36,961 bases of DNA from Methanobacteriota archaeon (GTDB taxonomy: Archaea > Thermoplasmatota > E2 > JACPAO01). The position numbers and the translations under genes were made by a program. The stretch lies in assembly GCA_016180755.1 (NCBI GenBank), contig JACPAO010000024.1, forward strand, positions 1 to 36,961, given 5' to 3'. The notes under the pieces were generated by a model, which did no database searches, was not told where the DNA came from, and saw only the letters and a program-made list of their open reading frames with translations. Shown here one piece after another: positions 11,601-26,649 of the stretch. Every line of letters begins with the position of its first letter. The stretch's first letter is position 1.

Positions 11601-11620
11601 CCGTCGGGCGCTCTGTTTAC

Positions 11621-11630
11621 CGGTATTTTG
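11621..11630 (-). promoter_or_regulatory. TATA-like box (minus strand CAAAATACCG) for the PQQ/PKD gene
   Basis: AT-rich box about 28 nt upstream of GTG 11600. Confidence 0.4.
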
Positions 11631-11822
11631 AGTTTTGCTTAGCGGGGCCGACGGGTCTGCCAGCGGGCGACGCCAGCGCGAGTGAGGGGTGTTCGGGTCT
11701 TAACCGTAGATGTCTGTTCGATCGGTCGCATACCGCTTCGACGCGTCCTTTGCACGAACGCAACCACCGAAGGCAGGGGCCCGCCCCGCAAGACTACCCC
11801 TACATTTACTGGAATATCAAAA

Positions 11823-11833
11823 TTTCTATAAAC
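11823..11833 (+). promoter_or_regulatory. TATA box (TTTCTATAAAC, preceded by the A-rich BRE-like ATCAAAA) for the Fic gene
   Basis: This is the strongest TATA-like element in the window. It lies about 29 nt upstream of GTG 11855. Confidence 0.5.
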
Positions 11834-11854
11834 TTGTAGGGGTAATACAATGGC

Positions 11855-12742
11855 GTGGTCACGGTCGCGCGAAAGCGGATAGGAACGCGCGACTACTATT
11901 ATCTCCAGCATACGATTCGCCGTGGGGCGAAGGTTAGCAAGAAGGAGGTCTACCTTGGCCCACGCCTGCCTCGCGACGTGGAGGCTCGAAAGCGACAGCT
12001 TCAGCTCGATTTGTTCCGCGAGCAATGGCTTCCCCGACTGGATCGGATCCGGAAGGAGGTTCGGCACGAGTCAAAGGGGATCCCAAGCAGCCTAGCCGCG
12101 AAGCGCCTGCAAGACTTCGCCGTTCGATTCACCTACGACACACAGCGGATTGAAGGATCGACCCTCTCGCTTAGGGAAACCGCAGACCTCCTCGACCGTG
12201 GAATCACACCCGCCAACAAACCGGTCCAAGACGTGCGGGAGGCGGAGGCTCATGAGGCGCTTTTCCACGAGGTCCTCCGCTACACCAAGGATCTCAACCG
12301 GCAGATTGTCCTGAAGTGGCACCGATCCTTGTTCCTTTCGACCCGGCCAGACATCGCGGGCCAGTTTCGGCGGCATGGAGTCCGCATTTCCGGAAGCCGG
12401 TTTGTCCCCCCGTTACCCGTCGAGGTGGAGCCTCTCATGCGAGACTTCTTTGCGTGGTACCATCGAGCAAGAGACGCAATGCATCCCGTCGAACGGGCGG
12501 CGCTCGTCCACTTGAAGGTCGTGACCGTCCACCCGTTCGGCGACGGAAACGGTCGTGTTTCGAGGCTTCTCATGAACTTGGTCCTCAAGCAAGCCAGGTT
12601 CCCGTTGCTCAACATTCCCTACGAGAACCGCGCGTCCTACTACCGCGCACTAGAGCGGAGTCAGACACGGAGGGACGACCTCCCATTTCTTCGCTGGTTT
12701 TTCCGCCAGTACGCCAAGAATCACCGACACCTGCTCGGATAA
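11855..12742 (+). CDS. Fic-family protein (AMPylase/adenylyltransferase fold)
   Basis: 295 aa with the canonical Fic motif HPFGDGNGRVSRLLMN (HPFx[D/E]GNGR). Confidence 0.85.
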   Translation: MVTVARKRIGTRDYYYLQHTIRRGAKVSKKEVYLGPRLPRDVEARKRQLQLDLFREQWLPRLDRIRKEVRHESKGIPSSLAAKRLQDFAVRFTYDTQRIEGSTLSLRETADLLDRGITPANKPVQDVREAEAHEALFHEVLRYTKDLNRQIVLKWHRSLFLSTRPDIAGQFRRHGVRISGSRFVPPLPVEVEPLMRDFFAWYHRARDAMHPVERAALVHLKVVTVHPFGDGNGRVSRLLMNLVLKQARFPLLNIPYENRASYYRALERSQTRRDDLPFLRWFFRQYAKNHRHLLG

Positions 12743-12790
12743 TCACGTGCGTGGGTTCCTTCTCGCCGCCCAGGCCCGCTGGCCCCCGCC

Positions 12791-13480
12791 CTAGGTGAAG
12801 TACATGCTGAGGATCTTCTTCTCGGCGGCCTTCATGCGGTTGTGGGCGGCCGCCTTGCTGATGCCGAAGATCTCGGCGAGCGTGTCGAGGCTGCACTTTC
12901 GGGGGGTGTCGTAGAGGCCGAGCGCCAGGGCCATCTTGACGATCTCGGCCTGTTTCGGCGTGAGCTTCTCCTCGTAGTCACCGATGGGGTGCTCCTCGGG
13001 CTTGTACTCGCCGAAGTGGAGGAGCCGCAGCCGTATGCCGAGGCCCTTCAGGAATTCCGTGGCCTCCCGCACGAGGGCCCCGATGTCGACGTCGACGAGC
13101 GTGATGACGCCGATCGTCATCCAGCCGTCCTTGATGACGGTCGGGCGGAGAATCATGTCGGAGCCGATCCGTCGCAGGCCCTCCTCGTACGGGCCTTTGA
13201 GGATGGCCTTCTTCTCCTCGTTGAGCGTGATCATGACGCTGCAGGCGCGTTCGTCACGCCGGAGGATCCGGACCTCGTCGTAGTATTCGGGGAGGACGAA
13301 GAGCAGCTTGTCGTACTGGGCGGGCGTGCCAAGGATGGTGAGGATCTGCTTGATCGGGAAGTGGTCCTGGTCGAAGTTGATGTGGTTGAAGATGAGCCGC
13401 GTACCCGGGTTGTCCCGCGTGAACTGGACGATGGGCAGCCCCGGGATCTCGACCTGGAAGACGATCTCCGTCATCACCAT
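12791..13480 (-). CDS. Bat-type HTH_10 transcriptional regulator
   Basis: 229 aa. The C-terminus LTPKQAEIVKMALALGLYDTPRKCSLDTLAEIFGISKAAAHNRMKAAEKKIL is the archaeal bacterio-opsin-activator-type HTH. It is divergent from the surface-protein array. Confidence 0.8.
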   Translation of the reverse strand: MVMTEIVFQVEIPGLPIVQFTRDNPGTRLIFNHINFDQDHFPIKQILTILGTPAQYDKLLFVLPEYYDEVRILRRDERACSVMITLNEEKKAILKGPYEEGLRRIGSDMILRPTVIKDGWMTIGVITLVDVDIGALVREATEFLKGLGIRLRLLHFGEYKPEEHPIGDYEEKLTPKQAEIVKMALALGLYDTPRKCSLDTLAEIFGISKAAAHNRMKAAEKKILSMYFT

Positions 13481-13505
13481 TCGGTTTCCCGCGTGAATAT
13501 GTCAA

Positions 13506-13517
13506 GTATTATTTAAC
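13506..13517 (-). promoter_or_regulatory. TATA-like box (minus strand GTTAAATAATAC) for the HTH_10 regulator gene
   Basis: AT-rich box about 30 nt upstream of ATG 13480. Confidence 0.4.
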
Positions 13518-13537
13518 GAAAAGCCGGCTCGGACCCT

Positions 13538-13566: not shown

Positions 13567-13630
13567 CACTGAAACCGGGCACGGCCTCCCGGCGACTGCC
13601 ACCGGGCCGGTGACACAAGTTAACCAATGT

Positions 13631-13640
13631 GGTTATATGG
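13631..13640 (+). promoter_or_regulatory. TATA-like box (GGTTATATGG) for surface-protein paralogue 1
   Basis: About 31 nt upstream of ATG 13664. Confidence 0.45.
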
Positions 13641-13663: not shown

Positions 13664-15838
13664 ATGCCTTCCCGCGCCGCCCCAGTGGCCGCCACGTTGC
13701 TTCTTCTGGCGCTGGCCGGCAGCCTCCCCCCGGCGTCCGCCCAGGAACCGGGCGTCGTGCACAAGGAGGACGCGAAGAACGACGTCACCTTCAGCGCCCA
13801 GCAGGTGAATTCTCCGAACCTCCCCGACAACGAGGTCACGTCCTACGTCGACATCCACACCCTCACGGTCACCGATGTCGACGAGGAGACGCTTGAGGTC
13901 CGCCTCAAGACGGGGACCCCGTTCGTCGTCATGAATGGCCAGAAGCTGCAGACGTACGGGATCGAGGAGGTCTACCACCAGGTCTTCTTCTCCATCCCGG
14001 GGGCCGGCGGTCAGCCGGTCCAGGCCCAGGTCAACGTCCGCTCGATCCACGTCCACGTCGAGAACAACACGCCCAGCAAAGGCTTCCTCGTCGTCTACGC
14101 CAGCCTCTGCTTCCCAAGTTCCCTCCAGCAATACCAGTATTCGTGCGAGTACGGAGGCAACCAGCTTCCCGTCTCCGCCGACGGCGGCGTACTTGTCGCG
14201 CGGATCCCGAAGGAAAAACTGACCCAGGTGGGGCAGGAGGGCGAGCGCACCCGGAACGCCAACCTTCCCGGACGGCTCTTCCCCGGAGACGTCCTCACGG
14301 ACGTCTACGCGCGGGCGTTCCTACGCCCCTTCTTCACGGGCGGGGGTTTCTTGGAGGTCGCACGCTTCATCGACCGCGCCCCCGACTCGGGCGGCCTCCA
14401 AATTACGCTCCGGTTCGGCTCGCCCGCCCCCGACCTCAAGATGAGCGTCCCCCAGGCCGCCGTCATCCTTGGCCAGGAGAACCAGGTGCCCGTCCTGGTC
14501 CAGAACCTTGGCACGCACAAGCGCATCGTGAATCTCACGGTCGACCGCCTTACCGCCGACCAGCCTTGGACGGCCTCCGTCACGCCCTCCGTCACCCTGG
14601 GGGCCGGGAAATCCGCGAACGTCACGCTACGCGTCACGCCCCCGCCGGCCGGAACGAGCGACCGCCTCACGGCCGTCCTCAAGCTCCGCGCAACCATCCT
14701 CACGGAGCCCGGCACGATCGCCATCGCGCGCCTCGGCCTCGTCGCCGCGCCTCCGCTCGACCGCGACCACAGCACCTATTTCGTCGTCGGCCGCCAATGG
14801 AACTCGTTCTTCGGGCTTCCGTTTCCCTTCCTCGCGTGGGGCGAGGGAGGCCTTACCCGCAGCGAGACCGACGCCCGCTTCGCGACCGCCACGTCGTTCG
14901 CCATGAGCCCGTCCTTCGGCACGAGCTCGGGGGTCACCTCGTTCGCGTTCCAGTCTTCGCTCCGGTCCGACCCCATCCCCAACGCCGCGGTCATCCGGCC
15001 CGGCGAACCCGCCCAGGCCGTCGTGGACATCGAGGCGCCTTACCCGGCCGCGGCGACCCTCGCCATCACCGGACAGTTCGGGCCCCAGCTCCTCTTCCAG
15101 ACGCAGAAGACGATCACCCTCGCGGCCGGCTCCAACAAGATTCCCTTCGACGTGCCGATCCTCCCGAGCGTGCAGCGCCTTGACCCGTCGAACGGCACGC
15201 TGCGCGTCGACATCCGCCTCTCGGTTCAGGGCGCCGACGGCGCGCCCTACCTCACCTCGTACTTCGGCGTCAACGGCCCGAAGATCGTCCCGAAGACGAC
15301 GTTCGTCCGGTTGCCCGTCGACCGCGAGGTCCCGGCTGTGCAGGCCGCGACCGCGAAGGTCGCCCTCTCCCCGGCGGAGGAACTCGACGGGTTCGTCAAC
15401 CCGGGGCGCGTCCAGGTCGTCGAGCTCGACGTTCGCAACGAGGAACCCCGCGAGATGACCTTGCAGCTCGAGGCCCTCAACGTCACCGAGGGCTGGGACG
15501 TCGCGGTGAAGCCTGGTGCCCGGCTCCGGCTTGCGAGCCAGGACGCCGTCCACGTGGGCGTCCTCATCAAGGCCCCGGCGGACGCGAAGGAAGGAGACGC
15601 CCTCAAGTTCCGGCTCGTCGTGCGAGACGTCGTCAACGATACGCTCGTCGCCGGCCAGTGGATCCGCTCCATCGTCACCCGCGGCGTCGAGATCGAGAAC
15701 GAGACGTTCGAGGTCGCGCAGGACGACGCGAAGAAGCTCGACGTCCCCTCCGGGAAATCCCCCGGTCTGGGGCTCCTTGCCGCCTTGGCGGCGACCGCGG
15801 CCGCGGGGCTCCTGGGAAGGCGGCGTCGTGCCGCGTGA
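13664..15838 (+). CDS. Secreted cell-surface protein, paralogue 1 of 4 (uncharacterised family, PGF-CTERM-like C-terminal anchor)
   Basis: 724 aa from ATG 13664. Signal peptide MPSRAAPVAATLLLLALAGSLPPASAQ. Family motifs: YVDIHTLTVTDVDEETLEVRLK, RFIDRAPDSGG, KRIVNLTVD, TLGAGKSANVTLRVTPP, PPLDRDHSTYFV, IPNAAVIRPGEP, FVNPGRVQVVELDVRNEE, APADAKEGD, TRGVEIENETF. The C-terminus is SPGLGLLAALAATAAAGLLGRRRRAA. Confidence 0.85.
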   Translation: MPSRAAPVAATLLLLALAGSLPPASAQEPGVVHKEDAKNDVTFSAQQVNSPNLPDNEVTSYVDIHTLTVTDVDEETLEVRLKTGTPFVVMNGQKLQTYGIEEVYHQVFFSIPGAGGQPVQAQVNVRSIHVHVENNTPSKGFLVVYASLCFPSSLQQYQYSCEYGGNQLPVSADGGVLVARIPKEKLTQVGQEGERTRNANLPGRLFPGDVLTDVYARAFLRPFFTGGGFLEVARFIDRAPDSGGLQITLRFGSPAPDLKMSVPQAAVILGQENQVPVLVQNLGTHKRIVNLTVDRLTADQPWTASVTPSVTLGAGKSANVTLRVTPPPAGTSDRLTAVLKLRATILTEPGTIAIARLGLVAAPPLDRDHSTYFVVGRQWNSFFGLPFPFLAWGEGGLTRSETDARFATATSFAMSPSFGTSSGVTSFAFQSSLRSDPIPNAAVIRPGEPAQAVVDIEAPYPAAATLAITGQFGPQLLFQTQKTITLAAGSNKIPFDVPILPSVQRLDPSNGTLRVDIRLSVQGADGAPYLTSYFGVNGPKIVPKTTFVRLPVDREVPAVQAATAKVALSPAEELDGFVNPGRVQVVELDVRNEEPREMTLQLEALNVTEGWDVAVKPGARLRLASQDAVHVGVLIKAPADAKEGDALKFRLVVRDVVNDTLVAGQWIRSIVTRGVEIENETFEVAQDDAKKLDVPSGKSPGLGLLAALAATAAAGLLGRRRRAA

Positions 15839-15856
15839 GGGACGTCCTCCTCAACC

Positions 15857-15864
15857 CTTAAGAG
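15857..15864 (+). promoter_or_regulatory. Weak TATA-like box (CTTAAGAG) for paralogue 2
   Basis: About 27 nt upstream of GTG 15885, in the 46-nt spacer. Confidence 0.3.
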
Positions 15865-15884
15865 CCGAAGCCCCCACGGGGCGC

Positions 15885-18032
15885 GTGGTCCTCCTGCGGT
15901 CCCTCTGCTTCGCCGTCGTAGCCCTGCTCCTCGTTCCCGCCGTGGCGGCGCAGGACAAGAAATGGGAGAAGGAGGACGGGCCCGGCGACATGGTCCTCAC
16001 GGTCGGGGGACAAGTGACGCCCGTCCCAGCCCCGCCGATTCGGCACGTGAACTACGGCGACCTCACCCACCTCACGATCGACGACCCGCACGAGGGCTAC
16101 ATCGAGTTCCGCCTCCGGAACCAGGCCGGTTACGTCGCGTCGCCCGGAACCTTGGGCGGCGTCGAGGAGATCATTCAGCATATCCTCTTCCAGCCTCCCA
16201 ACGCGCAGGGCTGGGCGGGGCTTGCCGTCTACAGTTCCGTTCCCGGGACCTCCCCGGCCTCCAACCCGGTGACCTCGCGGGTGAACTTCTGCACCGACAC
16301 GGATCCCGCGCGGCTAAGCTGCTTCGGCGAATCCACGCTGCCCTTCTCCGTCGAGGAGAAGGAGCTTGTCATCAAACTCCCGAAGAAGGCCCTCACCGCG
16401 GACGGCGCCCCGAAGGGCGGCCGCGCCGCGATCGTGTTCCCCGCGGCCCTTTTCGCCGGCGACCAGCTCACCCGCGTCCACGTGCGTTCGTATTCGACCG
16501 TCCCCATCGTCCTGTTCGGGAGTGGCACGGCGAGCGGCGGCCGTACGGTGACGTTCTTCGACCGTCTTCCGAACGATGGCGACGGTCCCGCGTACGTCCT
16601 CAAGCACGGCGCGAGCCCGCCCGACCTCGAGGTGAGGGTGCTCCGCGCCGGCCTCGTCGCCGGTGAGGAGACGCTTGTGCCGATCAGCATCGCGAACAAG
16701 GCCCCGAGCAAGCGCCTCCTAAACCTGACCGCGGAGGTCCTCTCGGGTGGCGAGGGATGGAAGTACGGCCTCACCCCGGCCCTCACGCTTGGATCGGGAA
16801 AGTCGGCGAACGCAACGCTCCGCATCACGGCGCCTCGCGGCGGCACCGGCGACGCGAACCGCGCCACCTTCCGCATCGCGGCCGCCATCATGAACGAGCC
16901 GGGGAGACGGAGCCTTGTGGAGGCGAGCTTCGTCGCGGGCCCGGCGCTCGACGCGGGCCGCAGCACGTTCTACCTCCATCGCGGTCAGACGGAGACGGTG
17001 CTCGCGCCGACCGCGTACGGCGAGAGCGACGCGTTCCTGAGCCGCTACGAGACGGACCCGGAGGCTCGGGACGACGCTGGGATCCACGCGGGAAAGCGCG
17101 TGGGCTCGGGGGTGTCCGGTTTCCGGTTCCCGTTCGACTTTTTCGACGGAGGAAGCCTCCGGGACGCGATCCCGAACGCGGCGAGCCTGCGGAAAGCCGA
17201 GCCCATCAAGGGCCACTTCGAGTTCGACGTGCCGATCGACCTCCAGGGACGCGCGACGTTCACGCTCACCGCGGGCGACGGAAAGGTCCTTCTCGCCTCC
17301 GGCCAGAAGGACATCGCGTTCAAGGCCGGCAAAAACGTCGTCGACATCGACGCTGCGATCGCCGGCCCCTTCGAGCGCCTCGGGCCGAGCGACCTCCTTT
17401 CCGGCGACGTCCTCCTCGCCAGCGACCCGCTCGTGGGCTTCGCCGGATATTTCGTGAGCTTCGCGGACGACTTCTACATGCTCCCCAAAACGTCGCACTT
17501 CACGATCCCCGTCGACCGCGAGGCCGAGGTCATCATACGGCCGGACCTGCCGCGCGTGAGCCTCGCCGCCGCGGAAGACACCGAAGCGTTCGTGAACCCC
17601 GGCCGCAAGACCGTGTTCGAGGTCGACCTCCTCAACGACGACACAAAAGCCCAGAACCTGGTCCTCTTGGTCGACAACAAGACCCTCGAGTGGGACGTAC
17701 AGATCCTGCCCGGAACCGACCTGCGACTTCGGGCGAACGAATCCGCCCGCCTCGGGATCATCGTCCATGCACCCGCGGATGCCAAGGAGGGCACGAAGCT
17801 CCAACTCTCGATCGCCGCGCGACTGCGCGAGACCAACGAACTTCTGTCGCTACTCCGGCTCTCCGCCCTCGCGACGAGCGGCGTCGAGATCGACAACGAG
17901 ACCTTCGAGGTCGCCGCGGAGGACGCAAGGAAGCTGGCCACCCCGGACGGACGCTCCCCGTTCCCCATGTTCGTCGCCGTTGGGGCCGTCCTCGCCGTGG
18001 CCGCCCTCCTGCGGCGCCGGTTGTTCAGTTAG
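15885..18032 (+). CDS. Secreted cell-surface protein, paralogue 2 of 4
   Basis: 715 aa from GTG 15885. The upstream part of the 838-aa track ORF overlaps paralogue 1 and is Arg/Ser-rich. Signal peptide (M)VLLRSLCFAVVALLLVPAVAAQ. It has the same motif series: YGDLTHLTIDDPHEGYIEFRLR, FFDRLPNDGDGPAYVL, KRLLNLTAE, TLGSGKSANATLRITAP, IPNAASLRKAEP, FVNPGRKTVFEVDLLNDD, APADAKEGT, TSGVEIDNETF. The C-terminus is SPFPMFVAVGAVLAVAALLRRRLFS. Confidence 0.8.
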   Translation: MVLLRSLCFAVVALLLVPAVAAQDKKWEKEDGPGDMVLTVGGQVTPVPAPPIRHVNYGDLTHLTIDDPHEGYIEFRLRNQAGYVASPGTLGGVEEIIQHILFQPPNAQGWAGLAVYSSVPGTSPASNPVTSRVNFCTDTDPARLSCFGESTLPFSVEEKELVIKLPKKALTADGAPKGGRAAIVFPAALFAGDQLTRVHVRSYSTVPIVLFGSGTASGGRTVTFFDRLPNDGDGPAYVLKHGASPPDLEVRVLRAGLVAGEETLVPISIANKAPSKRLLNLTAEVLSGGEGWKYGLTPALTLGSGKSANATLRITAPRGGTGDANRATFRIAAAIMNEPGRRSLVEASFVAGPALDAGRSTFYLHRGQTETVLAPTAYGESDAFLSRYETDPEARDDAGIHAGKRVGSGVSGFRFPFDFFDGGSLRDAIPNAASLRKAEPIKGHFEFDVPIDLQGRATFTLTAGDGKVLLASGQKDIAFKAGKNVVDIDAAIAGPFERLGPSDLLSGDVLLASDPLVGFAGYFVSFADDFYMLPKTSHFTIPVDREAEVIIRPDLPRVSLAAAEDTEAFVNPGRKTVFEVDLLNDDTKAQNLVLLVDNKTLEWDVQILPGTDLRLRANESARLGIIVHAPADAKEGTKLQLSIAARLRETNELLSLLRLSALATSGVEIDNETFEVAAEDARKLATPDGRSPFPMFVAVGAVLAVAALLRRRLFS

Positions 18033-18044
18033 CCTCACCAAACG

Positions 18045-18055
18045 GCTTATATTGG
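18045..18055 (+). promoter_or_regulatory. TATA-like box (GCTTATATTGG) for paralogue 3
   Basis: About 30 nt upstream of ATG 18077, in the 44-nt spacer. Confidence 0.45.
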
Positions 18056-18076
18056 TTCCCTCCCGCTTGGCGCTTG

Positions 18077-20233
18077 ATGCGGGCCGCCGTCCCCCTCGCC
18101 ATCCTCCTGTTGGGGCTCCTTGCGCCGGCCTCGAGCGCCCAGAACCCGCCGGCCTCTGGCGGTTGGACGCAGAGCGACAACCCCAACGACCTGTCCCTCG
18201 GTGCCTTCGGCCAGAACCTGGGACCCGCGCCGAGCCAGTGGCACTTCTCGTACCTCGACATCACAGGCCTGGCCATCGAGGACCCCGACGAGATGAACCT
18301 CGTGTTCCGCCTGAAGGTCGCCGGCGGCTTCCGGCCGGGGCCCGTCGCCGGATCCGTCCCCGGGGAATACATCCTCCACACGATCCAGTTCAAGGTCCCG
18401 GGATCCGCCGCGTACGGGGTCGTCCAGGCCATCTCCGACGGCCGCATCGACGCGCCCATGCCGACGGCGCCCACGTGGGTGGTCTTCTGCACGATGGTCA
18501 CCCTCCGGAACCGCTGCGAGAACCCGTTTGGCGGGCCGCCATCCCTCCTCGAGTTCACGATCGAGGAGGGCGTGCTGGTCATGCCGGTGCCCAAGGGCCT
18601 CATGACCCGCGACGGCGCCCACGACCGCAACCCCGCGAAGCAGCAGTTGCCCGTCGAGATCGACGCCGGCGCGGTTCTCGAGAACATCGTGGTCTCCGCC
18701 GAGGGCTCCTACTTCCTCAACCAGGTCGGTTTCGGCGTCCTCAACGGTCGGCCCGTCAGCGTCTCCGACCGGATGCCCGACGCCTCGCCGGCGCCGCCCT
18801 ACGTGCTCGCCAACGGGGCCGCCGTCCAGGACCTCGTCATGAAGGTGGATGCGCGCGGCGCCATCCTGGGCCAGGAGAGCGCCCTGCCGGTGCTGCTCTT
18901 CAACAAGGCGGCGAGCAAGCGCCTCGTGAACCTCACGGTGCGGCACACGAACCCCGACGACGCCGGCGCCTGGCGGGTCTCCATCACGCCCACGATCACG
19001 ATCGGGAGCCAACAGTACGTGAACGCGTCGCTTCGCGTCTTCCCCCCAGCGGCCGCAAATCCCAGCAAGCCCGGCAAGATCCTTATCACCGCCTCCATCC
19101 TCAACGAGGGCCGCCGCGCCATGTACGAGGCCAAGCTTCTGCCCACGCCGCCCTTGGACCGGGCCCACGCGACGTACTTCGTCCACGGCACACGCAACCA
19201 ATGGGGAAACGCGATCTGCCTTCCGGCGTGCCCCAACTACTTTGCCTACCTCAACCGGGTGGAGGAAGACAAGTCATCCGCCGACCCGCAAGGGATCCGC
19301 ATGCAGCGCGGCGGGTTCGTGAGCGAAACCCGTTTCTCCACAAGCGTCGCGACGCGAGGGTTCTTCGGGATCTACGACACGATTCCCAACGCGGCCCGCC
19401 TCAATCCCGGCGCGCCCATCAAGCTCCACCTCGAAGTCGAGGCGCCCGCGGCGTTCGCGGCGACCGCCAAGGTCCAGCTCACGACGGACGCGGGCCTCCT
19501 TGGAATCAAGGAGGGGCCGGTGACGTTCAAGCAGGGCGCCAACGGGTTCGACTTCGACCTCAAGGTCCTCAACGAGACCCTCGACGCGTCCGACGGAGGG
19601 GTAGCCCTCTACATCGAGGTGCGCGCGACCGGCGCCGACGCCCTCCTCGCGGGCGCCTCGCCTTTCGAGAGCCTCGTCCTCCTCCCGAAGGCCTCCAAGA
19701 TCCAGCTCGACCTCGAGCGAATCGTGGAGGAGCTTCCCCCGCTCGATGCGCCGAAGGCCATCCTGGCGGCCGCCGAGGACCGCGAGACGTTCGCCAACCC
19801 GGGAAGGACGACCGTATTCGAGATCGACCTGCGCAACGAAGACCAGGGTCCGCTGCGGGTCGAGCTCAAGGTCGAGGGCGAGTCGGCGCCGTGGCCGGTG
19901 ACCATCAAGCCCGGGGTCAGGTTCCAGCTCAAGGCCGGCGAGGCGGTCCGCCTCGGGGTGGCCGTGACGGTCGCCGACGCCGCCAAGGAGGGGGACCGGC
20001 TTTCGTTCCGCCTGATCGCCTTCGTCCCGGACAAGCAGGTCGTCGCGTCGGGGGTCCACCTCACGACGATCGCGACGCGCGGCATCGACATCGAGAACGA
20101 GACGTTCGTGTCGGCGGCCGAGGACGCCAAGAAGCTCGACGAGCCGGCGAAGTCGACGCCCGGCCTCCCGTTCGGCCTCGTCGGCGCCGTCCTCGCGGTG
20201 GGCGCGACCTTCGTACGGCGGCGGCGCGCCTAA
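18077..20233 (+). CDS. Secreted cell-surface protein, paralogue 3 of 4
   Basis: 718 aa from ATG 18077. The 1158-aa track ORF is an open-frame extension across paralogue 2. Signal peptide MRAAVPLAILLLGLLAPASSAQ. Motifs: YLDITGLAIEDPDEMNLVFRLK, DRMPDASPAPPYVL, KRLVNLTVR, PPLDRAHATYFVHG, IPNAARLNPGAP, FANPGRTTVFEIDLRNED, ADAAKEGD, TRGIDIENETF. The C-terminus is STPGLPFGLVGAVLAVGATFVRRRRA. Confidence 0.85.
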   Translation: MRAAVPLAILLLGLLAPASSAQNPPASGGWTQSDNPNDLSLGAFGQNLGPAPSQWHFSYLDITGLAIEDPDEMNLVFRLKVAGGFRPGPVAGSVPGEYILHTIQFKVPGSAAYGVVQAISDGRIDAPMPTAPTWVVFCTMVTLRNRCENPFGGPPSLLEFTIEEGVLVMPVPKGLMTRDGAHDRNPAKQQLPVEIDAGAVLENIVVSAEGSYFLNQVGFGVLNGRPVSVSDRMPDASPAPPYVLANGAAVQDLVMKVDARGAILGQESALPVLLFNKAASKRLVNLTVRHTNPDDAGAWRVSITPTITIGSQQYVNASLRVFPPAAANPSKPGKILITASILNEGRRAMYEAKLLPTPPLDRAHATYFVHGTRNQWGNAICLPACPNYFAYLNRVEEDKSSADPQGIRMQRGGFVSETRFSTSVATRGFFGIYDTIPNAARLNPGAPIKLHLEVEAPAAFAATAKVQLTTDAGLLGIKEGPVTFKQGANGFDFDLKVLNETLDASDGGVALYIEVRATGADALLAGASPFESLVLLPKASKIQLDLERIVEELPPLDAPKAILAAAEDRETFANPGRTTVFEIDLRNEDQGPLRVELKVEGESAPWPVTIKPGVRFQLKAGEAVRLGVAVTVADAAKEGDRLSFRLIAFVPDKQVVASGVHLTTIATRGIDIENETFVSAAEDAKKLDEPAKSTPGLPFGLVGAVLAVGATFVRRRRA

Positions 20234-20251
20234 CATTCGCCCACCGATACG

Positions 20252-20259
20252 TCTAAATC
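20252..20259 (+). promoter_or_regulatory. Weak TATA-like box (TCTAAATC) for paralogue 4
   Basis: About 29 nt upstream of GTG 20282. Confidence 0.3.
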
Positions 20260-20281
20260 CTCCGGGCACGCCCGGCGCGTC

Positions 20282-22441
20282 GTGGCGCGGGTGACCACGT
20301 TCGGCCTGGCGTTGGTTCTTGCGTCCGTCGCCTTGCCGGCCGGCGCGCAAGGCCCGCCCGAACCTTGGTCGCTCACCGACGCGCCCGACGACGTCGTCGT
20401 CGAGGCCGGCCCGGGACAGACGCCGCCCGTGGCCCGCGCCTGGTTCACGCCGTACGTCGACGTGACCTCGCTCGTCGTCGAGGACCCGGACGAGGAGTCC
20501 CTCGTGTTCAAGCTCCGGACTAGTGCAGGCTTCGCCCCGGCGGCGGCCGTCTCTCACCGGCCCGTGTTCCCGGTGGAGCACGAGATCCAGTTCTCGGCGC
20601 CGGGAGGCAATGCCGCTCTGTCCATACTCGTCGAGTCCATGGGCCGCCAGGACCAGACGCCCCTCGACCCGTTGTACGTCGTCCGCGCGAAGCTTTGCGG
20701 TGGAACGCGGCCCACGACCGGGTTGGGTGTGGGGGCCGAGACCATCTGCAACTGGCGCAGCCGGGTCGACTACCGCGTCGAGGACGGGGCCCTCGTCATC
20801 CTCCTCCCCAAGTTGGAGCTCACGAACCGCGCCGCGGAGAAGGACCAGGTCACGCAGCTCCTGCCGCCGGCCTTGGAGCCCGGGATGAGCCTGCAAGGGA
20901 TCCGCGTGCGCGCCTCGGCCAACGTCGAGGCCGTCGCGGGCGGAACGCTCGTCGGCGCGCGGTTCGTCGACCGGGCGCCCAACGCGGGCGCCGCTCCGCC
21001 CTACGTGCTGCGCCGCGGTTCCACCGTCGCGGACCTCTCCATCCACTTCGACCGCCGAGGCGTCATCGCCGGCGAAGAGAACGTCCTCCTGGTCCGCGTC
21101 GACAACACGGCCCCCCACAAGAGACTCGTCGCGTTCTCCGCGGAGGTCGAGACGACCGTCGGGGACGGCACCTGGACGGCGGAGATCACGCCCAAGGCGA
21201 CCATCCCGGCGGGCAAGACCGCCAACCTGACCCTTCGCCTGCGGACCCCGACTTCCGGCCTCAGTGGCATGTCCGCGGGGGAAATCCGCGTCGTGGGCCG
21301 CATCCTTACCGAAGGCGGCCTCGTCGCCGCGACGAGCTGGTCCTTCACCGCCAGCCCGCCGCTTGGGGACTCCCACAACCGGTACTTCGTGCACGGCTTC
21401 GGCGTCCAGCAGGCGGGACCCCAGGGCATTCCGCTGCCCGGAGGCCTGTTCGGATACGCTTCGGCGGCGCTCTCCAGGCACGAGTCGTGGCCTGGCGCAA
21501 AGGACGACGAGGCCCTGCCGCTCCAGCAGCCGGCCCTGAGCGGGAACTTCATGGCCGGCCTGTACGCCGCAGGCGCCGACCACATCCCGAACGCCGCACG
21601 GTTCCGGGCGGGCGAGCCGATCACCGGCACGCTCGTGCTTGACGCCCCGACCTCCTTCGACGGCTCCCTGCGGATCCTCCTGTTCTATCGGGCCAACCAG
21701 CCGTTTGCCGACAAGGCCTCCCCCGTCTCGATCCGGGAGGGACGGCACGCGTACACGTTCTCCCTGCCGCCGCTGCCGGACGCCGCGGGACTGACTCCGT
21801 CGGACGACCGCGTCGGGCTCTTCCTGCAGGTCTCCAAGTCCGGGCTCGGCGCGGACCACGTGACGGTCCTCAACCGGCTCGACCCCCTGGCGCTCGTCCC
21901 CCGCGGGTCGTTCTTCGACCTGCCGCTCGTCCGCGCCGTTCCGCGCTCCGCCAGCGGCGACCTGCCGGCCGTCTTCCTCGGCCCGACCGAGGACCTCGAG
22001 GCGTTCATCAACCCGGGCCGGCGACAAGTCATCGAGTTCGACGTGCGCAACGAGGACCCGCAGTCGCAGATCGTCACGCTCTCTGCCGAAAACGTGACGA
22101 ACGATTGGACGGTGACGGTCGCCCCCGGAACCGAGTTCGCCTTGGGGTCGAACGAGTCGGTCCGCGTCGGCTTCCTCGTCGACGCTCCCGCGGACGCGAA
22201 GGAAGGCGAGGAGTTGGTGTTCCTTGCGACGGCGCGCTCGAGCTCCGACCGACGGATCCTTTCCAACTACGCCGTCCGCCTCGTCGCGACACGCGGCGTG
22301 GACATCGAAAACGAGACGTTCGAGGCCGACGAGGACGCCGCCAACAAGCTCGCGACCAACCGGTCCACCCCCGGAGTCGGCGCTGTGGCGATTCTTTGCG
22401 TGGTATCGGGCGCCTTCACGCTGTGCCGGCGCCGCGCGTAG
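20282..22441 (+). CDS. Secreted cell-surface protein, paralogue 4 of 4
   Basis: 719 aa. Signal peptide (M)ARVTTFGLALVLASVALPAGAQ. Motifs: YVDVTSLVVEDPDEESLVFKLR, RFVDRAPNAGAAPPYVL, KRLVAFSAE, PAGKTANLTLRLRTP, PPLGDSHNRYFVHG, IPNAARFRAGEP, FINPGRRQVIEFDVRNED, APADAKEGE, TRGVDIENETF. The C-terminus is STPGVGAVAILCVVSGAFTLCRRRA. Confidence 0.85.
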   Translation: MARVTTFGLALVLASVALPAGAQGPPEPWSLTDAPDDVVVEAGPGQTPPVARAWFTPYVDVTSLVVEDPDEESLVFKLRTSAGFAPAAAVSHRPVFPVEHEIQFSAPGGNAALSILVESMGRQDQTPLDPLYVVRAKLCGGTRPTTGLGVGAETICNWRSRVDYRVEDGALVILLPKLELTNRAAEKDQVTQLLPPALEPGMSLQGIRVRASANVEAVAGGTLVGARFVDRAPNAGAAPPYVLRRGSTVADLSIHFDRRGVIAGEENVLLVRVDNTAPHKRLVAFSAEVETTVGDGTWTAEITPKATIPAGKTANLTLRLRTPTSGLSGMSAGEIRVVGRILTEGGLVAATSWSFTASPPLGDSHNRYFVHGFGVQQAGPQGIPLPGGLFGYASAALSRHESWPGAKDDEALPLQQPALSGNFMAGLYAAGADHIPNAARFRAGEPITGTLVLDAPTSFDGSLRILLFYRANQPFADKASPVSIREGRHAYTFSLPPLPDAAGLTPSDDRVGLFLQVSKSGLGADHVTVLNRLDPLALVPRGSFFDLPLVRAVPRSASGDLPAVFLGPTEDLEAFINPGRRQVIEFDVRNEDPQSQIVTLSAENVTNDWTVTVAPGTEFALGSNESVRVGFLVDAPADAKEGEELVFLATARSSSDRRILSNYAVRLVATRGVDIENETFEADEDAANKLATNRSTPGVGAVAILCVVSGAFTLCRRRA

Positions 22442-22958
22442 CCGGGCCGGCCGCCCGTAGGACCTCCTCGGCGAAGGGCCGGAGCCCGCGAGCCTCGGCC
22501 GCCGACAGCAGCGCCGGTCCGTCGAGTCGGCCGCGGTGGGCCCGGGCAAGGAGTTCCGCGCGCCATTTCCATGCCCGGTCCTGCCGTGAGGCGGCCAGGA
22601 GGTCGACGAGGGTCTCGACAAGGCCCGAAACATGGACCGTCCGGCCGGCAACGATGTAGGGGACGCCCCGGGCTTGGTGCGGGTGAAGTTCGACCGCGAG
22701 GCCTCGGCCGCGGTGGACGAGGGCCGTCCCGGCTTCGTTGAAGCCCCACTCCTTGAGGACCCCCGCGGCGCGGGCCCGGTCGGTCGAAACCTCCATGCGC
22801 GGGTGCGGATCGACGCCGCACGTGTAGAATTCGTACGCCGATGCACCGACGAGGACGACCGGGCCGGCGACCGCCTCGCGAAGGAGCGCTGCGAGCACGA
22901 TCCGCTGCTCGGGCGGCGCCCGTGCGGCAAGGGGCTCAAGCGGGTCGCTGGTCGTCAT
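22416..22958 (-). CDS. Hypothetical protein, possibly nucleotidyltransferase-fold (MNT/AbiEii-like architecture); partner of the upstream RHH protein
   Basis: 180-aa ORF whose ATG lies 23 nt inside the end of the RHH gene. The layout VVLVGASAYEFY..MEVSTD..GF....VELHP...VAGRTVHVSGLVETLVDLL resembles small NTase-fold toxins or antitoxin partners, but the catalytic acidic motif is not clean. The 3' end overlaps paralogue 4 convergently by 26 nt. Confidence 0.55.
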   Translation of the reverse strand: MTTSDPLEPLAARAPPEQRIVLAALLREAVAGPVVLVGASAYEFYTCGVDPHPRMEVSTDRARAAGVLKEWGFNEAGTALVHRGRGLAVELHPHQARGVPYIVAGRTVHVSGLVETLVDLLAASRQDRAWKWRAELLARAHRGRLDGPALLSAAEARGLRPFAEEVLRAAGPATRGAGTA

Positions 22959-23202
22959 CCTGGCTCCGCAGCTCCCCGGTGGCCGTCCGCTCGTCCCACA
23001 GCCGCCGCGCGGCTCCGCCGAGAAGCGCTACGTCCGGGCCCCCTTTGTCGCGCTCCGCCTGGATACGGGCGGCGACGAGCCAATGCTCGCGAAGGAGGAC
23101 CTCCAGGAGAGGGCTCAGGTCCTCTTCGCGCGCGCTCGCAAGCCCGCGCAGCGCGCCTTCCAACTCGCCGGACACCGAAATGGAGAGCTTTCTTACTACC
23201 AT
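22936..23202 (-). CDS. Ribbon-helix-helix (CopG/RHH) DNA-binding protein, antitoxin-like
   Basis: 88 aa. The N-terminus MVVRKLSISVSGELEGALRGLA matches the RHH beta-strand/helix pattern (K.isisLp.el.e.L). A TATA-like GCATTAATCC lies about 22-25 nt upstream on the minus strand. Confidence 0.6.
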   Translation of the reverse strand: MVVRKLSISVSGELEGALRGLASAREEDLSPLLEVLLREHWLVAARIQAERDKGGPDVALLGGAARRLWDERTATGELRSQDDDQRPA

Positions 23203-23309: not shown

Positions 23310-24566
23310 ATGAGCGGCTACACTATTTCTCAGAAGATTCTTGCCAGGAATTCTTCGAAATCCTCAGTCATGCCTGGCGAAATCGTAGAGGCGACCGTGG
23401 ACCTTGCGATGAGCCACGACAACGCGCTCCTCGTTTCCAAGAAATTCAAGGAGATCGGCGTCCCGCAGATCTGGAACGCGGACAAGGTCGTCATCCCCTT
23501 CGACCATCGGACGCCCGCGCCGACGATCGAGGTCGCCAACGGCCACGCGCAAGTGCGGTCGTTCATCCGGCAGGTCGGAATCAAGAACTTCTACGACGTC
23601 GGGGTGGGGATCTGCCACCAGGTCCTCCCGGAGAAGGGCCACATCAAGCCCGGCATGCTTGTGGTCGGCACCGACAGCCACACGACCACGTACGGCGCCT
23701 TCGGCGCGTTCGCCACCGGGATCGGCGCGACCGAGATGGCCGGCGTCTGGGCGACGGGTCGGTTGTGGTTCCGCGTGCCCGAGACGTTCCGCTTCGAGAT
23801 CCAAGGGCCTCTGCCGCGCCAGGTCTACGCCAAAGACCTCATCCTTCACGTCATCGGCCAACAGACGCTCGACGGATGCGACTACCGCGCCGTCGAGTTC
23901 TACGGCAGCGCCATCGACGGGCTCACGGCGGACTCGCGCATGACCATCGCGAACCTCTCGATGGAGATGGGCGCCAAGGTCGGGCTCCTGCCGGTCGACC
24001 AGCACGCGCTTGACTATCTGTCGCTCCACGCCAGGGGGCCGTTTGAGCCCGTCGTCGCCGACGAGGACGCCCCGTACGAGAAGGAGTTCCACCTCGATGC
24101 GCGCGACATGGAGCCGCAGGTCGCCTGCCCCCACAGCGTCGACAACGTGAAACCCATCACGGACGTCGAGGGCGTACCCATCGACCAGATCTTCATCGGC
24201 ACATGCACCAACGGCCGGTACGAGGACTTCAAGGCCGCCGCGGATATCCTGCGCGGGGAAAAGATCGCAAGCCGAACCCGCATGCTCATGATCCCGGCGT
24301 CTCGTGACGTCTTCCTCGAATGCCTGCAGAAAGGCATCGTCACGGACCTCACCGAGGCGGGCGTCACCGTCGAGAGCCCCGGCTGCGGTCCCTGCCTCGG
24401 CGCGCACCAGGGCGTCCTCGGCGACGGAGAGAAATGCTTCTCGACGACGAACCGCAACTTCCGCGGACGCATGGGCCACATCAACAGCGAGGTCTACCTC
24501 GGAAGCCCCGCCGCCGCCGCCTCGACCGCGCTCTACGGCGAGATCACCGATCCCCGGAGGGTCTAG
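23310..24566 (+). CDS. leuC: 3-isopropylmalate dehydratase / homoaconitase large subunit (archaeal short aconitase-family type)
   Basis: 418 aa. Motifs: DLAMSHDN, GICHQVLPEKG, VVGTDSHTTTYGAFGAFATGIG, SMEMGAK, GTCTNGR, GCGPCLG and NRNFRGRMG. The last three carry the Fe-S cluster Cys ligands. The sequence alone cannot separate IPM from homoaconitase specificity. Confidence 0.85.
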   Translation: MSGYTISQKILARNSSKSSVMPGEIVEATVDLAMSHDNALLVSKKFKEIGVPQIWNADKVVIPFDHRTPAPTIEVANGHAQVRSFIRQVGIKNFYDVGVGICHQVLPEKGHIKPGMLVVGTDSHTTTYGAFGAFATGIGATEMAGVWATGRLWFRVPETFRFEIQGPLPRQVYAKDLILHVIGQQTLDGCDYRAVEFYGSAIDGLTADSRMTIANLSMEMGAKVGLLPVDQHALDYLSLHARGPFEPVVADEDAPYEKEFHLDARDMEPQVACPHSVDNVKPITDVEGVPIDQIFIGTCTNGRYEDFKAAADILRGEKIASRTRMLMIPASRDVFLECLQKGIVTDLTEAGVTVESPGCGPCLGAHQGVLGDGEKCFSTTNRNFRGRMGHINSEVYLGSPAAAASTALYGEITDPRRV

Positions 24567-24567
24567 C

Positions 24568-25059
24568 GTGTCGCGCGCATGGACGTACGGGGACAACGTC
24601 AACACGGACGTGCTCTACCCGGGCCGCCACCTCGCGAACATCGACCCCAAGTACCAGGCGGCCCACGCCCTCGAGGACCTCGACCCGGGTTTTGCGAAGA
24701 CCGTCCAGGCGGGCGACGTCGTCGTCGGGGGCAAGTTCTTCGGCTGCGGATCGAGCCGCGAACAGGCCGTCACGTGCCTCAAGTACGCCGGCGTGCCCTT
24801 CGTGATCGCCGCGAGCTTCGCACGCATCTACTACCGCAACGCCATCAACAACGGCCTCCCGCCCCTCGTGAGCCCCGAGGCGAGCGCCAAGATCCAGTCC
24901 GGGGACGACGTGACCGTCGACCTCGAAGCCGGGCTCATCCGAAACCGCACCCGCAACGAGACGTACCGGTTCGAAGCCTTCCCTGAATTCCTCCAGCGGC
25001 TTCTTGCCGCAGGCGGCCTCATCCCGTATCTGCGGCAACAGGTCCTTGTGAAGCAATGA
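24568..25059 (+). CDS. leuD: 3-isopropylmalate dehydratase / homoaconitase small subunit
   Basis: 163 aa from GTG 24568, 1 nt after the leuC stop. Motifs: GDNVNTDVLYPG, GKFFGCGSSREQAV, LKYAGVPFVIAASFARIYYRNAINNGL. The upstream part of the 251-aa track ORF overlaps leuC. Confidence 0.85.
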   Translation: MSRAWTYGDNVNTDVLYPGRHLANIDPKYQAAHALEDLDPGFAKTVQAGDVVVGGKFFGCGSSREQAVTCLKYAGVPFVIAASFARIYYRNAINNGLPPLVSPEASAKIQSGDDVTVDLEAGLIRNRTRNETYRFEAFPEFLQRLLAAGGLIPYLRQQVLVKQ

Positions 25060-26210
25060 CGCGGGTCGCATTCCTGCCCGGCGACGGCATCGGGCGCGAG
25101 GTCCTTCCGGCGGCTCGCAGGGTCCTCGAGGCGGCAGGATTCAAGCCAGAATGGGTCGAACTTCCCGTCGGCTGGGACGAGTGGCGACGCAGCGGCGACG
25201 CCTTGCCCGCGACGACACTCGCAGCGATGCGGAAGACCGACGCCGCGTTCTTCGGCGCCATCACCTCGAAGGGCCCGGCCGAGGCGGAACGAGAACTCGA
25301 CCCGAGCCTTCGCGGCAAGGGGATCCGCTACGCCAGCCCCATCCTTCGCCTCCGCAAGGCGTTCGACCTGGCGACCAACATCCGACCCACCCAGACCTTC
25401 GAAGGGAACCCGAACAACATCCGCGGCGCCATCGACATGGTCATCTTCCGCGAGAACACGGAGGACGTTTACGCCGAAGTCGAGGCGCACCCCACGCCCT
25501 CCGAGCTCATCGAAGCGTGGCGGAAGGCGGGCGCGCGAAGCGAAGACCTGCCTGCGGCCGGCGCCGACACGGCGATGACCGCGCGCGTGATCACGCGACG
25601 CCGCACCGAGTCCATTGTCCGTGCGGCCTTCGACTACGCCGCCAAGAACAACCGGCGGCGCGTCACGCTCCTCGAGAAGGCGAACGTCATGCGAAAGACC
25701 GGGGGCCTCGTGCAGGAAATCTTCCGCAAGGTGGCCACGGAACATCCCCGGCTCGAGACCGAAGAACTGCAGATCGACGCTGCCTGCGCCCTCTGCGTCC
25801 GCGACCCCCGCCGCTTCGACGTCGTCGTGGCCACGAACCTCTTCGGCGACATCTTCAGCGACCTAGCGGCCGAAATCGCCGGCGGTCTAGGCCTCGCGCC
25901 ATCGGCAAACATCGGCGCCAAGTACGCCCTCTTCGAGCCCGTCCATGGGTCGGCGCCCGACATCGCGGGGAAGGGCGTCGCGAATCCGGTGGCCGCCATC
26001 CTCACGGGGGCGCTGCTTGCGCGCCACCTGGGTGACCCTGGCGTCGCGCATCGCGTCGAAGCAGCCGTGGCGGCGTGGTTCAAAACGGGGCCCCTGACGG
26101 CGGACCTGGGCGGGGGCGCCAGCACGGATGACGTGACCGAGAAGATCGCAACGAGCCTTGGCCGGCGGGCAAACACGGCTACCAATGTCGTGAAAAATCG
26201 CCGTGGCTGA
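25056..26210 (+). CDS. Isopropylmalate / homoisocitrate / isocitrate dehydrogenase family protein
   Basis: 384 aa with an ATGA overlap onto the small dehydratase subunit. Motifs: LPGDGIGREV, LRLRKAFDLATNIRP, VIFRENTEDVY, NLFGDIFSDLAAEIAGGLGLAPSANIG, EPVHGSAPDIAGKG.ANP. It is longer than a typical archaeal IPMDH because of internal insertions. Confidence 0.85.
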   Translation: MTRVAFLPGDGIGREVLPAARRVLEAAGFKPEWVELPVGWDEWRRSGDALPATTLAAMRKTDAAFFGAITSKGPAEAERELDPSLRGKGIRYASPILRLRKAFDLATNIRPTQTFEGNPNNIRGAIDMVIFRENTEDVYAEVEAHPTPSELIEAWRKAGARSEDLPAAGADTAMTARVITRRRTESIVRAAFDYAAKNNRRRVTLLEKANVMRKTGGLVQEIFRKVATEHPRLETEELQIDAACALCVRDPRRFDVVVATNLFGDIFSDLAAEIAGGLGLAPSANIGAKYALFEPVHGSAPDIAGKGVANPVAAILTGALLARHLGDPGVAHRVEAAVAAWFKTGPLTADLGGGASTDDVTEKIATSLGRRANTATNVVKNRRG

Positions 26211-26252
26211 ACGGGCGCCGTGGCTTCGCACCTCAAAATACTCGGGCGCCGA

Positions 26253-26405
26253 ATGCTTGTGTGGTTCGTGGCGCTTGCAAGCGGAGTGCAAACGTTGACG
26301 CAGACGGCGGAATCGCTCTATTTCGGGCACTATGTCGTTGGGTCCTGCTGGTTCGCTGCCACGATACTGCTCATCGTCTTGGCCGTGAACATCGAAAAGC
26401 GTTAA
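26253..26405 (+). CDS. Small two-TM membrane protein, cassette copy A, gene 1
   Basis: 50 aa from ATG 26253 (the track starts at GTG 26220). MLVWFVALASGVQTLTQTAESLYFGHYVVGSCWFAATILLIVLAVNIEKR aligns without gaps to the protein at 34889-35059, with 20 of 50 identities counted by hand. Confidence 0.6.
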   Translation: MLVWFVALASGVQTLTQTAESLYFGHYVVGSCWFAATILLIVLAVNIEKR

Positions 26406-26420
26406 GGCGTTCGTGGAGGA

Positions 26421-26537: not shown

Positions 26538-26649
26538 CGGCCTCCAGGCCGCGCTGACACGTTTGAGTCCCGGCGACCCCGTCCATGACACAACCTGGAC
26601 GGCCCGTTACGGCAACGCTTATGACGCACCGGGGGTGCTCGTTCGACCC

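Follow-up and report, generated by a model that had tools for sequence, protein, structure and literature searches.

A tandem array of four co-oriented genes, here named par1 to par4, probably encodes paralogous cell-envelope glycoproteins that would serve as outer-coat building blocks, in a surface layer (S-layer) or in a non-crystalline coat, of an uncultured, non-halophilic Thermoplasmatota-like archaeon. The array lies on contig JACPAO010000024.1 (assembly GCA_016180755.1), which was analysed over its full length of 36,961 nucleotides (nt; G+C ~68%) and is referred to below as the window. We assign this reading, which draws on sequence features and structure models, a probability of about 60%. 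The protein family is uncharacterised; the kind of object, an archaeal anchored surface glycoprotein encoded in a variable locus, is well known.

The four genes occupy the forward strand at 13,664–15,838 (par1, 724 aa, ATG start), 15,885–18,032 (par2, 715 aa, GTG start), 18,077–20,233 (par3, 718 aa, ATG start) and 20,282–22,441 (par4, 719 aa, GTG start), with boundaries taken from the listing of open reading frames (ORFs) and from inspection of the start codons. Spacers of 46, 44 and 48 nt separate them. All pairs of the encoded proteins align end to end at 33–35% identity (tblastn E-values of 1e-79 to 1e-94), a similarity well out of reach of chance, and the four-way alignment contains 105 invariant columns. 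These results bear out a preliminary description of the locus, made from the sequence alone, which had reported four co-oriented full-length paralogues of 724, 715, 718 and 719 aa with spacers of 44–48 nt. The nine ordered motifs that it listed are real conserved blocks in the alignment, with some copies degenerate: par4 has KRLVAFS in place of KRLVNLT, par3 carries TIGSQQYVNASLR and VADAAKEG, and par2 reads TSGVEIDNETF.

We assessed the age and integrity of the copies at the nucleotide level. A repeat finder detected a periodicity of ~2.2 kb across the array, and the longest DNA segment common to the copies was 103 nt at 65–73% identity. Because the shared DNA is this short and divergent, the copies are old rather than the product of an assembly artefact or of recent gene conversion, in agreement with the old and maintained duplication without long nucleotide repeats that had been proposed. 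All four frames are open with coding-type G+C at third codon positions (0.86–0.91), and signal peptides, C-terminal tails and conserved blocks are intact in every copy. A reading of the array as an artefact of assembly, or as pseudogenes in decay, has only the general risk of metagenomic assemblies in its favour. Against it stand the 33–35% identity, with no long DNA repeats to cause collapse or false expansion, the open frames and intact features, and independent contigs from other samples that hold equal adjacencies, so that this explanation is effectively already refuted. A search of the window turned up no long direct or inverted repeats through which cassettes could invert or gene conversion could proceed. 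There is no sign of tRNA-targeted integration, since the window lacks tRNA genes, and a tblastn search of plasmids gave no match.

The copies share one architecture. Each begins with a Sec-type signal peptide, consisting of an n-region, a hydrophobic stretch and A-x-A followed by Q, so that the expectation of a separate signal peptide per protein holds for all four. We drew domain borders from the strand pattern of an AlphaFold2 model of par1 together with the alignment. In par1, the signal peptide (residues 1–26) is followed by D1 (~28–246), D2 (~247–362), D3 (~363–560) and D4 (~561–675), and then by a linker with an NET sequon, an SPGL motif, a transmembrane helix and an RRRR tail. The model, computed from an alignment of six sequences, is all-beta and multi-domain, with a mean predicted local distance difference test (pLDDT) score of 73, a predicted template modelling (TM) score of 0.62 and a C-terminal helix at residues 701–723.

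We compared the four proteins with Pfam and obtained only marginal, Ig-like matches. These fall on D4 (~575–650; NPCBM_assoc, PF10633; FixG_C, PF11614; Ig_VWA7, PF23619) and on D2 (~256–339; CARDB, PF07705, or Ig_VWA7), which points to D2 and D4 being sandwiches of the same broad class as these families. Against a gathering threshold of 24.4 bits, NPCBM_assoc scored 26.2 in par1, 18.2 in par2, 16.8 in par3 and 17.9 in par4; CARDB matched par1 alone (residues 256–339), at 18.3 bits against a threshold of 22.7. Among 36 family members scanned at E ≤ 0.1, NPCBM_assoc was found in 26, FixG_C in 23, Ig_VWA7 in 24 and CARDB in one, and no other family recurred. The two internal modules previously likened to NEW3/CARDB are thus Ig-like as suggested, but the specific assignment is marginal, with NPCBM_assoc over threshold in par1 only and CARDB below it. 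Domains of the NPCBM_assoc type cover less than one third of an array protein, score at or below their gathering thresholds and are uninformative on function.

The N-terminal and central domains, D1 and D3, matched nothing in Pfam or among PDB sequences, in line with the earlier failure to place them in a named family. An NCBIfam scan of the full-length proteins gave no match, and the PDB sequence search returned only chance xylanase matches (E 0.37–0.65). No full-length match to a characterised family emerged from Pfam, NCBIfam or PDB sequences, and the view that the proteins carry no catalytic motif is supported. A Foldseek search of the full-length par1 model against the PDB and a viral library retrieved only generic multi-Ig proteins (TM-score ≤ 0.18), namely alpha-2-macroglobulin, complement, ciliary ASH-domain proteins and phage tail proteins. 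We considered an alpha-2-macroglobulin/complement thioester identity and rejected it: TM-scores are 0.11–0.18, the array proteins have ~720 aa, against >1200 aa for that class with its MG, TED and CUB domains, and they contain two to four Cys and no CGEQ. Since the thioester motif is missing and the size is wrong, the multi-Ig matches were dropped as a functional lead; judging from the model, the likeness is limited to repeated beta-sandwiches.

D1 was also modelled separately (pLDDT 69). Its best fold matches were weak, with 2ivf_C first (E 0.025, TM-score 0.35) and 1i82, 7nwn and 7b04 among the others, none of them at E ≤ 0.001; they include DOMON/CBM9-like EbdC, CBM9 and NxrC. Four Asp and one Lys in D1 are invariant across 36 divergent members, as are P240, N281, R287, P617 and E643. 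The Cys pair C149/C161 is kept without exception in an alignment of 16 sequences and almost without exception in that of the 36. This pattern of conservation suggests that the D1 residues form a metal-binding or structural site, with no recognisable catalytic centre.

Each protein contains 4–7 N-glycosylation sequons, compared with 2.4–3.0 expected, and three occupy conserved positions (NLT near residue 285, N-x-T near 315, and NET directly before the anchor). Every copy ends in a tripartite tail of (S/T)P(G/F)x, a hydrophobic stretch and RRR(R), with PGL, PFP, PGL and PGV as the motifs of par1 to par4 in order. A tail of this form is found in 98 of 135 full-length representatives as P[GAS], 14–26 residues and a basic cluster; the commonest spacing is 17, and the Pro mostly follows Ser or Thr. 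The tripartite layout is known from sortase-, exosortase- and archaeosortase-type signals (PMC6098224). Scanned alone, the par1 tail had PGF_CTERM (TIGR04126) as its best NCBIfam match (15.5 bits against a cut-off of 24.5), and some distant family members carry TPGF. The preliminary description had each protein end in a transmembrane anchor; the hydrophobic stretch or helix is indeed present in each, but the tail is more than that, being tripartite, sorting-signal-like and reminiscent of PGF-CTERM. The other secreted proteins of the window are lipobox lipoproteins without such a tail. None of the ORFs scanned with Pfam has an exosortase or archaeosortase match, the sequence at hand being the 37 kb window and short related contigs. 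Taken together, the signal peptides, the tails and the model give the proteins the features of the S-layer glycoprotein class: secretion, an ectodomain of several beta-sandwiches, sequons and a membrane-proximal anchor.

We then placed the proteins in a wider family. An exhaustive search with hidden Markov models (HMMs) of 1.84 billion cluster representatives yielded 438 representatives at E ≤ 1e-3, of which 218 reached ≤ 1e-10 and 106 reached ≤ 1e-30. The family proteins almost all have 700–780 aa and match over their full length; many distant members align well only from D2 through the anchor. The only names attached to them are "hypothetical protein", from metagenome-assembled genomes (MAGs) of Thermoplasmatota or Euryarchaeota. 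On this sequence evidence, the ~720-aa family extends beyond the window and appears confined to uncultured archaea that are Thermoplasmatota-like. Searches by word index, dominated by low-complexity candidates, returned only the window's own proteins, P0152, P0005, P0004 and one unrelated protein.

The nearest LeuC homologues come from MAGs labelled Thermoplasmatota or Thermoplasmata and from three family-carrying MAGs labelled "Halobacteriales". Proteins encoded in the window are not acidic (for example, isoelectric points of 5.6 for LeuC and 9.1 for isopropylmalate dehydrogenase, IPMDH), which makes a salt-in haloarchaeon an unlikely host. The label "uncultured Halobacteriales archaeon" on three family-carrying MAGs (the sources of loci L001, L006 and L007 below) is probably incorrect, or else very coarse.

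Compared with its flanks, the locus is hypervariable. The array fills a slot between the gene of a divergently transcribed HTH_10-family regulator (12,791–13,480, −) and a right flank of aconitase-family large and small subunits (leuC/leuD-like) and an isopropylmalate/isocitrate dehydrogenase (23,310–26,210, +; identified with Pfam). We compared it with related loci that were found with narrow alignments (L001 among genomes, L002 among metagenomes, and L006 and L007 for a more distant clade). Identities of the near-clade flanks by tblastn are 90–96% for HTH_10, 88–96% for LeuC and 80–89% for LeuD; the array proteins of near relatives are mostly 30–60% identical to those of the window, as against 88–96% for the flanks. 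L001, a GTDB MAG with extended synteny to the window (HTH_10 91%, LeuC 88%, LeuD 81% and IPMDH 70% identity), has a single family gene between HTH_10 and LeuC that is 31–35% identical to each window copy. L002 and L003 carry a par1 orthologue (60%) followed directly by leuC (95–96%). In L004, HTH_10 (96%) is followed by a par1 orthologue (51%) and, after a 45-nt spacer, by the N-terminal part of a par3 orthologue (69%); L005 holds the C-terminus of a par3 orthologue (P0016, 75%), the par4 orthologue P0004 (69–70%) and a convergent ORF183 related to window ORF 22,416–22,958. In L008, HTH_10 (90%) is followed by three copies and a pair of small convergent ORFs, after which come leuC (92%), leuD, the fourth copy and, last, IPMDH; its array copies are only 30–34% identical to those of the window. 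This fourth copy (P0015, 703 aa, L008 9765–11,876) lies between leuD and the IPMDH gene and splits the leu cluster.

The slot thus contains one copy (L001), at least three (L004 plus L005), four (window) or three plus one (L008), and these arrangements, with those of L002 and L003, indicate that the slot is conserved but its content is not. The array and its HTH_10 neighbour are syntenic in related genomes, so that neither of the outcomes named in the preliminary description as refuting it was observed. No close orthologue of par2 was found among the sampled relatives, in which its best relatives are ~34% identical. A neighbour-joining tree, built by a fast distance method, united par1 with its orthologues (bootstrap 100%), that group with the L001-type proteins (75%) and par4 with P0004 (100%), and contained no clade uniting the window paralogues. 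Orthologue pairs differ most in D1 and D3; D2 and D4 are their least divergent domains.

Family copies near leuC were absent from 79 other genomes, which makes the HTH_10-to-leuCD slot specific to the near clade. In the distant clade (L006, L007 and L009), two tandem copies lie upstream of the aIF5B/IF-2 gene (infB). The order copy1-copy2-aIF5B was observed at L006 6297–12,103, L009 8835–14,400 and L007 1–3749. A gene for a 387–393-aa lipoprotein, 34–36% identical between L006 and L009, precedes copy1 by 2–7 nt in these two genomes, and an HTH_10 gene lies ~6 kb downstream in L007 and L009. Neither the near relatives nor the distant-clade genomes show positional orthology between arrays, and with independent tandems in the distant clade this points to repeated tandem duplication and birth-and-death evolution.

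We inspected the DNA upstream of each gene for promoter-like elements. A TATA-like hexamer or octamer precedes every copy and ends 20–25 nt ahead of the start codon (TTATAT, CTTAAGAG, CTTATATT and CTAAAT for par1 to par4), in most cases with an ACCAA-type element resembling the transcription factor B recognition element (BRE) 4–5 nt further upstream. The candidate core promoter of par1, CAAGTTAACCAAT-GTGG-TTATAT (13,616–13,638, +), ends 25 nt before the ATG and is also kept in L004 before the par1 orthologue. The putative par2 element CTTAAGAG (15,857–15,864, +) is the weakest of the four and ends 20 nt before the GTG. The BRE/TATA-like elements of par3 (ACCAAACGGCTTATATT, 18,037–18,053, +) and par4 (ACCGATACGTCTAAAT, 20,243–20,258, +) end 23 nt before an ATG and a GTG, respectively. 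The equal of the par3 element, CCTCACCA-N5-CTTATAT, is found upstream of the par3 orthologue in L004, the par4 element and its spacing are repeated upstream of the par4 orthologue in L005, and like elements and spacing precede most copies in L001, L006, L007, L008 and L009. As a TATA-like element stands at near-constant spacing before each copy, the genes are probably transcribed separately, as leaderless transcripts. The promoter-like regular expression also matches upstream of an unrelated lipoprotein gene, so we take the motif for a core promoter of general use rather than for an operator peculiar to the array.

The HTH_10 neighbour is confirmed as the divergent regulator directly upstream that had been described: a protein of 229 aa whose HTH_10 domain (PF04967, residues 173–224) scores 62.9 bits against a threshold of 23.1 (E 2.5e-17). 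The region between it and par1 contains two conserved blocks, the HTH_10 TATA-like block and the par1 block CAAGTTAACCAAT-N4-TTATAT. The first of these, TGAATATGTCAAGTATTATTTAACGAAAA (13,494–13,522, −), was kept in a three-way alignment of the window, L004 and L001; it places a TATA-like TTAAATAAT 28–37 nt upstream of the HTH_10 start codon on the minus strand, and we infer that it is the HTH_10 promoter. The earlier suggestion of one regulator for the whole array is not supported: each gene has its own BRE/TATA-like element, and HTH_10 is tied to the array by adjacency alone and is lost from that position in the distant clade.

If the proteins are coat glycoproteins, the following mechanism can be proposed. 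Each gene would be transcribed from its own BRE/TATA-type core promoter ~20–25 nt before the start codon into a leaderless mRNA. The product would be exported by Sec, cleaved after A-x-A to leave an N-terminal Gln, and probably N-glycosylated at the three positionally conserved sequons (NLT ~285, N-x-T ~315, and NET before the anchor). The tripartite (S/T)PG motif, ~17-residue hydrophobic helix and Arg cluster would hold it in the membrane, either as a plain transmembrane anchor or, by analogy with PGF-CTERM substrates, after archaeosortase-like cleavage and lipid attachment. The ectodomain is predicted to be a string of beta-sandwich domains in which the Ig-like D2 and D4 would form a conserved scaffold; D1 would be membrane-distal and may be CBM9/DOMON-like, and D1 and D3 appear to diverge fastest. 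Copies in the slot would be gained, lost and replaced, and would diverge far faster than their neighbours. Such a hypervariable slot is the pattern expected of coat proteins that are exposed and on which viruses or predators exert pressure. The uniform size and architecture, together with the finding that no related contig examined was without a copy, argue for a coat subunit over an ordinary adhesin.

Several points weigh against a coat function. Neither sequence comparison (Pfam, NCBIfam, PDB sequences) nor fold comparison (Foldseek, TM-score ≤ 0.18) matched a characterised S-layer protein. Cultured Thermoplasmatales are described as having no paracrystalline S-layer (PMC12448462), so that a true lattice should not be presumed in this phylum and S-layer is to be read here as an S-layer or a non-crystalline coat. 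The par1 tail does not reach the PGF_CTERM cut-off and the tails of par2 to par4 have no match, for which reason PGF-CTERM-like is the term used here and membership is not claimed; the motif of the tails is PGL, PFP or PGV rather than PGF. The excess of sequons is only about two-fold. The promoters were called as consensus-like matches in a genome rich in GC, with a regular expression partly derived from these same sites.

We weighed other explanations against the same evidence. The array products could be accessory surface proteins, that is, anchored adhesins or glycan/ligand binders with a CBM9/DOMON-like head, located under or among another envelope layer. We regard this as possible but doubtful. 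The weak D1 fold matches are to CBM9 modules, DOMON-like EbdC and NxrC, and the four invariant Asp, the Lys and the Cys pair across 36 sequences suggest a metal or ligand site; many other secreted proteins are encoded in the window (BNR, LVIVD, CarboxypepD_reg, PQQ/PKD), and the absence of S-layers from cultured Thermoplasmatales (PMC12448462) would also fit. However, the D1 matches are not significant (E 0.025, TM-score 0.35, from a model of pLDDT 69), adhesins usually vary in repeat number whereas more than 100 divergent representatives keep ~720 aa and one architecture, and every related contig examined has at least one copy at a housekeeping locus.

Two further explanations accept a coat and differ in how the copies would be used. 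Alternative coats, expressed singly or by condition and switched by the adjacent HTH_10 regulator, seem unlikely to us; they would be an archaeal counterpart of Sap/EA1 switching in Bacillus anthracis or of the S-layer variation of other bacteria. The promoter-like elements differ in quality (TTATAT in par1 and par3, CTAAAT in par4, a weak CTTAAGA in par2), the divergently transcribed regulator shows extreme conservation and is retained in position in the near clade, and in both the window and L004 the par1 TATA-like element is closely preceded by a conserved CAAGTTAACCAAT with a GTTAAC palindrome. Yet inversion or recombination signals and long repeats for cassette switching were not found in the window, HTH_10 also stands beside the single copy of L001, the HTH_10 genes of the distant clade are ~6 kb off or not seen, and a promoter-like motif shared with an unrelated lipoprotein gene is a general one. 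An extended version, also improbable in our estimate, is a surface-variation system of interchangeable coats with individually regulated promoters and HTH_10 control via the GTTAAC-containing element, in which the slot would be a site of population-level cassette exchange. An obligate hetero-oligomeric lattice, with each paralogue at a distinct fixed position, is very unlikely. Four intact copies with 105 invariant columns in common, two-copy tandems that recur in three distant-clade genomes, and a first copy that is operonic with the conserved upstream lipoprotein gene in L006 and L009 would all be in keeping with it. The slot, however, holds one, at least three, four, or three plus one copies despite flanks that are 88–96% identical, L001 manages on one copy, the arrays are without positional orthology, and par2 has no orthologue in any sampled relative. 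Variable copy number and the absence of positional orthology therefore argue against a fixed four-subunit assembly, and with it against the multi-component lattice that the preliminary description had offered as one interpretation.

We compared the array with known surface-layer systems. The S-layer glycoprotein of Haloferax volcanii (csg) and other PGF-CTERM substrates of archaeosortase A resemble the array proteins in their Sec signal peptide, sequons and tripartite C-terminus (PMC6098224), and csg also in an ectodomain of 700–830 aa made of Ig-like beta-sandwich domains. Haloferax S-layer glycoproteins differ strongly between related species and strains (PMC5867893). Unlike csg, the array proteins show no detectable sequence similarity to it, csg is absent from their top fold matches, their (S/T)PG[LPVF] tail scores below the TIGR04126 cut-off, and the accompanying proteome is not acidic; csg is a single gene, whereas here there are one to four tandem paralogues. 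Methanosarcina genomes each contain many paralogous S-layer-related genes, of which one or a few encode the major expressed coat protein (PMC3361143). The Methanosarcina DUF1608 proteins are alike in the multiplicity of surface-layer paralogues, but belong to an unrelated domain family (the array proteins have no DUF1608 match), whereas the array is strictly tandem, at one conserved locus and of uniform length.

Tandem or alternative S-layer genes are also found in bacteria, as in the sap-eag genes of Bacillus anthracis, the tfsA-tfsB genes of Tannerella forsythia and the slpA cassettes of Clostridioides difficile; Sap/EA1 switching occurs in B. anthracis, and other bacteria vary their S-layers. 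These systems resemble the array in having adjacent paralogues with their own promoters, a variable cassette at a conserved position and strong divergence between strains. They differ in domain of life, in SLH/CWB2 anchoring, in folds and in sequences, and in that switching or co-assembly has been demonstrated for them. Haloquadratum populations have hypervariable islands of surface-glycoprotein genes.

A uniform ~720-aa family with a PGF-CTERM-like anchor provides a concrete coat candidate for an uncultured Thermoplasmatota-like lineage. Coat proteins of this kind, if that is what they are, would likely be a receptor for the viruses of the lineage, and the slot could be used to mark strains and, as a test case, to study how viruses drive diversification in archaea. 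Their (S/T)PG tails would widen the range of C-terminal sorting signals to include forms missed by current PGF-CTERM models. Current ideas are not overturned by this reading, which adds a new family to a known category. If instead the surface-variation system were real, the cell could change or mix its coat to escape viruses, and the family would represent the envelope protein of a whole lineage of uncultured Thermoplasmatota and include two domains whose folds are new.

The array is closed on its right by a two-gene module convergent with par4 (22,416–23,202, −) and without a Pfam family. Its 180-aa ORF (22,416–22,958) overlaps the 3′ end of par4 by 26 nt, and its 88-aa ORF (22,936–23,202) overlaps the start of the 180-aa ORF by 23 nt, a layout that resembles a toxin-antitoxin pair. 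Homologues of the module accompany the array in L005 (56%) and L008 (34% and 52%), and L001 keeps a remnant of the small 88-aa ORF.

Other parts of the window also vary. The genes left of HTH_10 differ between the window (8063–12,791) and L001 (3484–5425); those specific to the window encode a HEAT-repeat protein, a Polyketide_cyc2 protein, a 755-aa PQQ/PKD protein (9333–11,600, −) and a Fic/DOC protein (11,855–12,742, +), and the segment looks like a second variable one. On the other side of the array, ~8 kb (26,011–34,130) have no nucleotide-level match in L001 (compare L001 11,461–12,794). They encode BNR-repeat and LVIVD-repeat proteins together with three that have CarboxypepD_reg domains; several of these products start with lipobox signal peptides, and the block is a third variable one within 37 kb, rich in surface proteins. 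Two ORFs in this block (29,525–31,357 and 30,940–31,854, both −) overlap by ~400 nt; for the BNR_2-domain ORF, the mechanical ORF call probably set the upstream start wrongly. Near the left end of the window, three adjacent ORFs (735–2666, −) each contain a bacterial PH (bPH_2) domain. Near its right end are genes for a DisA_N/DAC-domain protein, a candidate c-di-AMP synthase (33,855–34,796, +), and for an ICMT-family methyltransferase (36,283–36,846, +). DNA overlapping the DisA_N/DAC gene and DNA just upstream of the ICMT gene (35,237–36,281) are conserved in L001.

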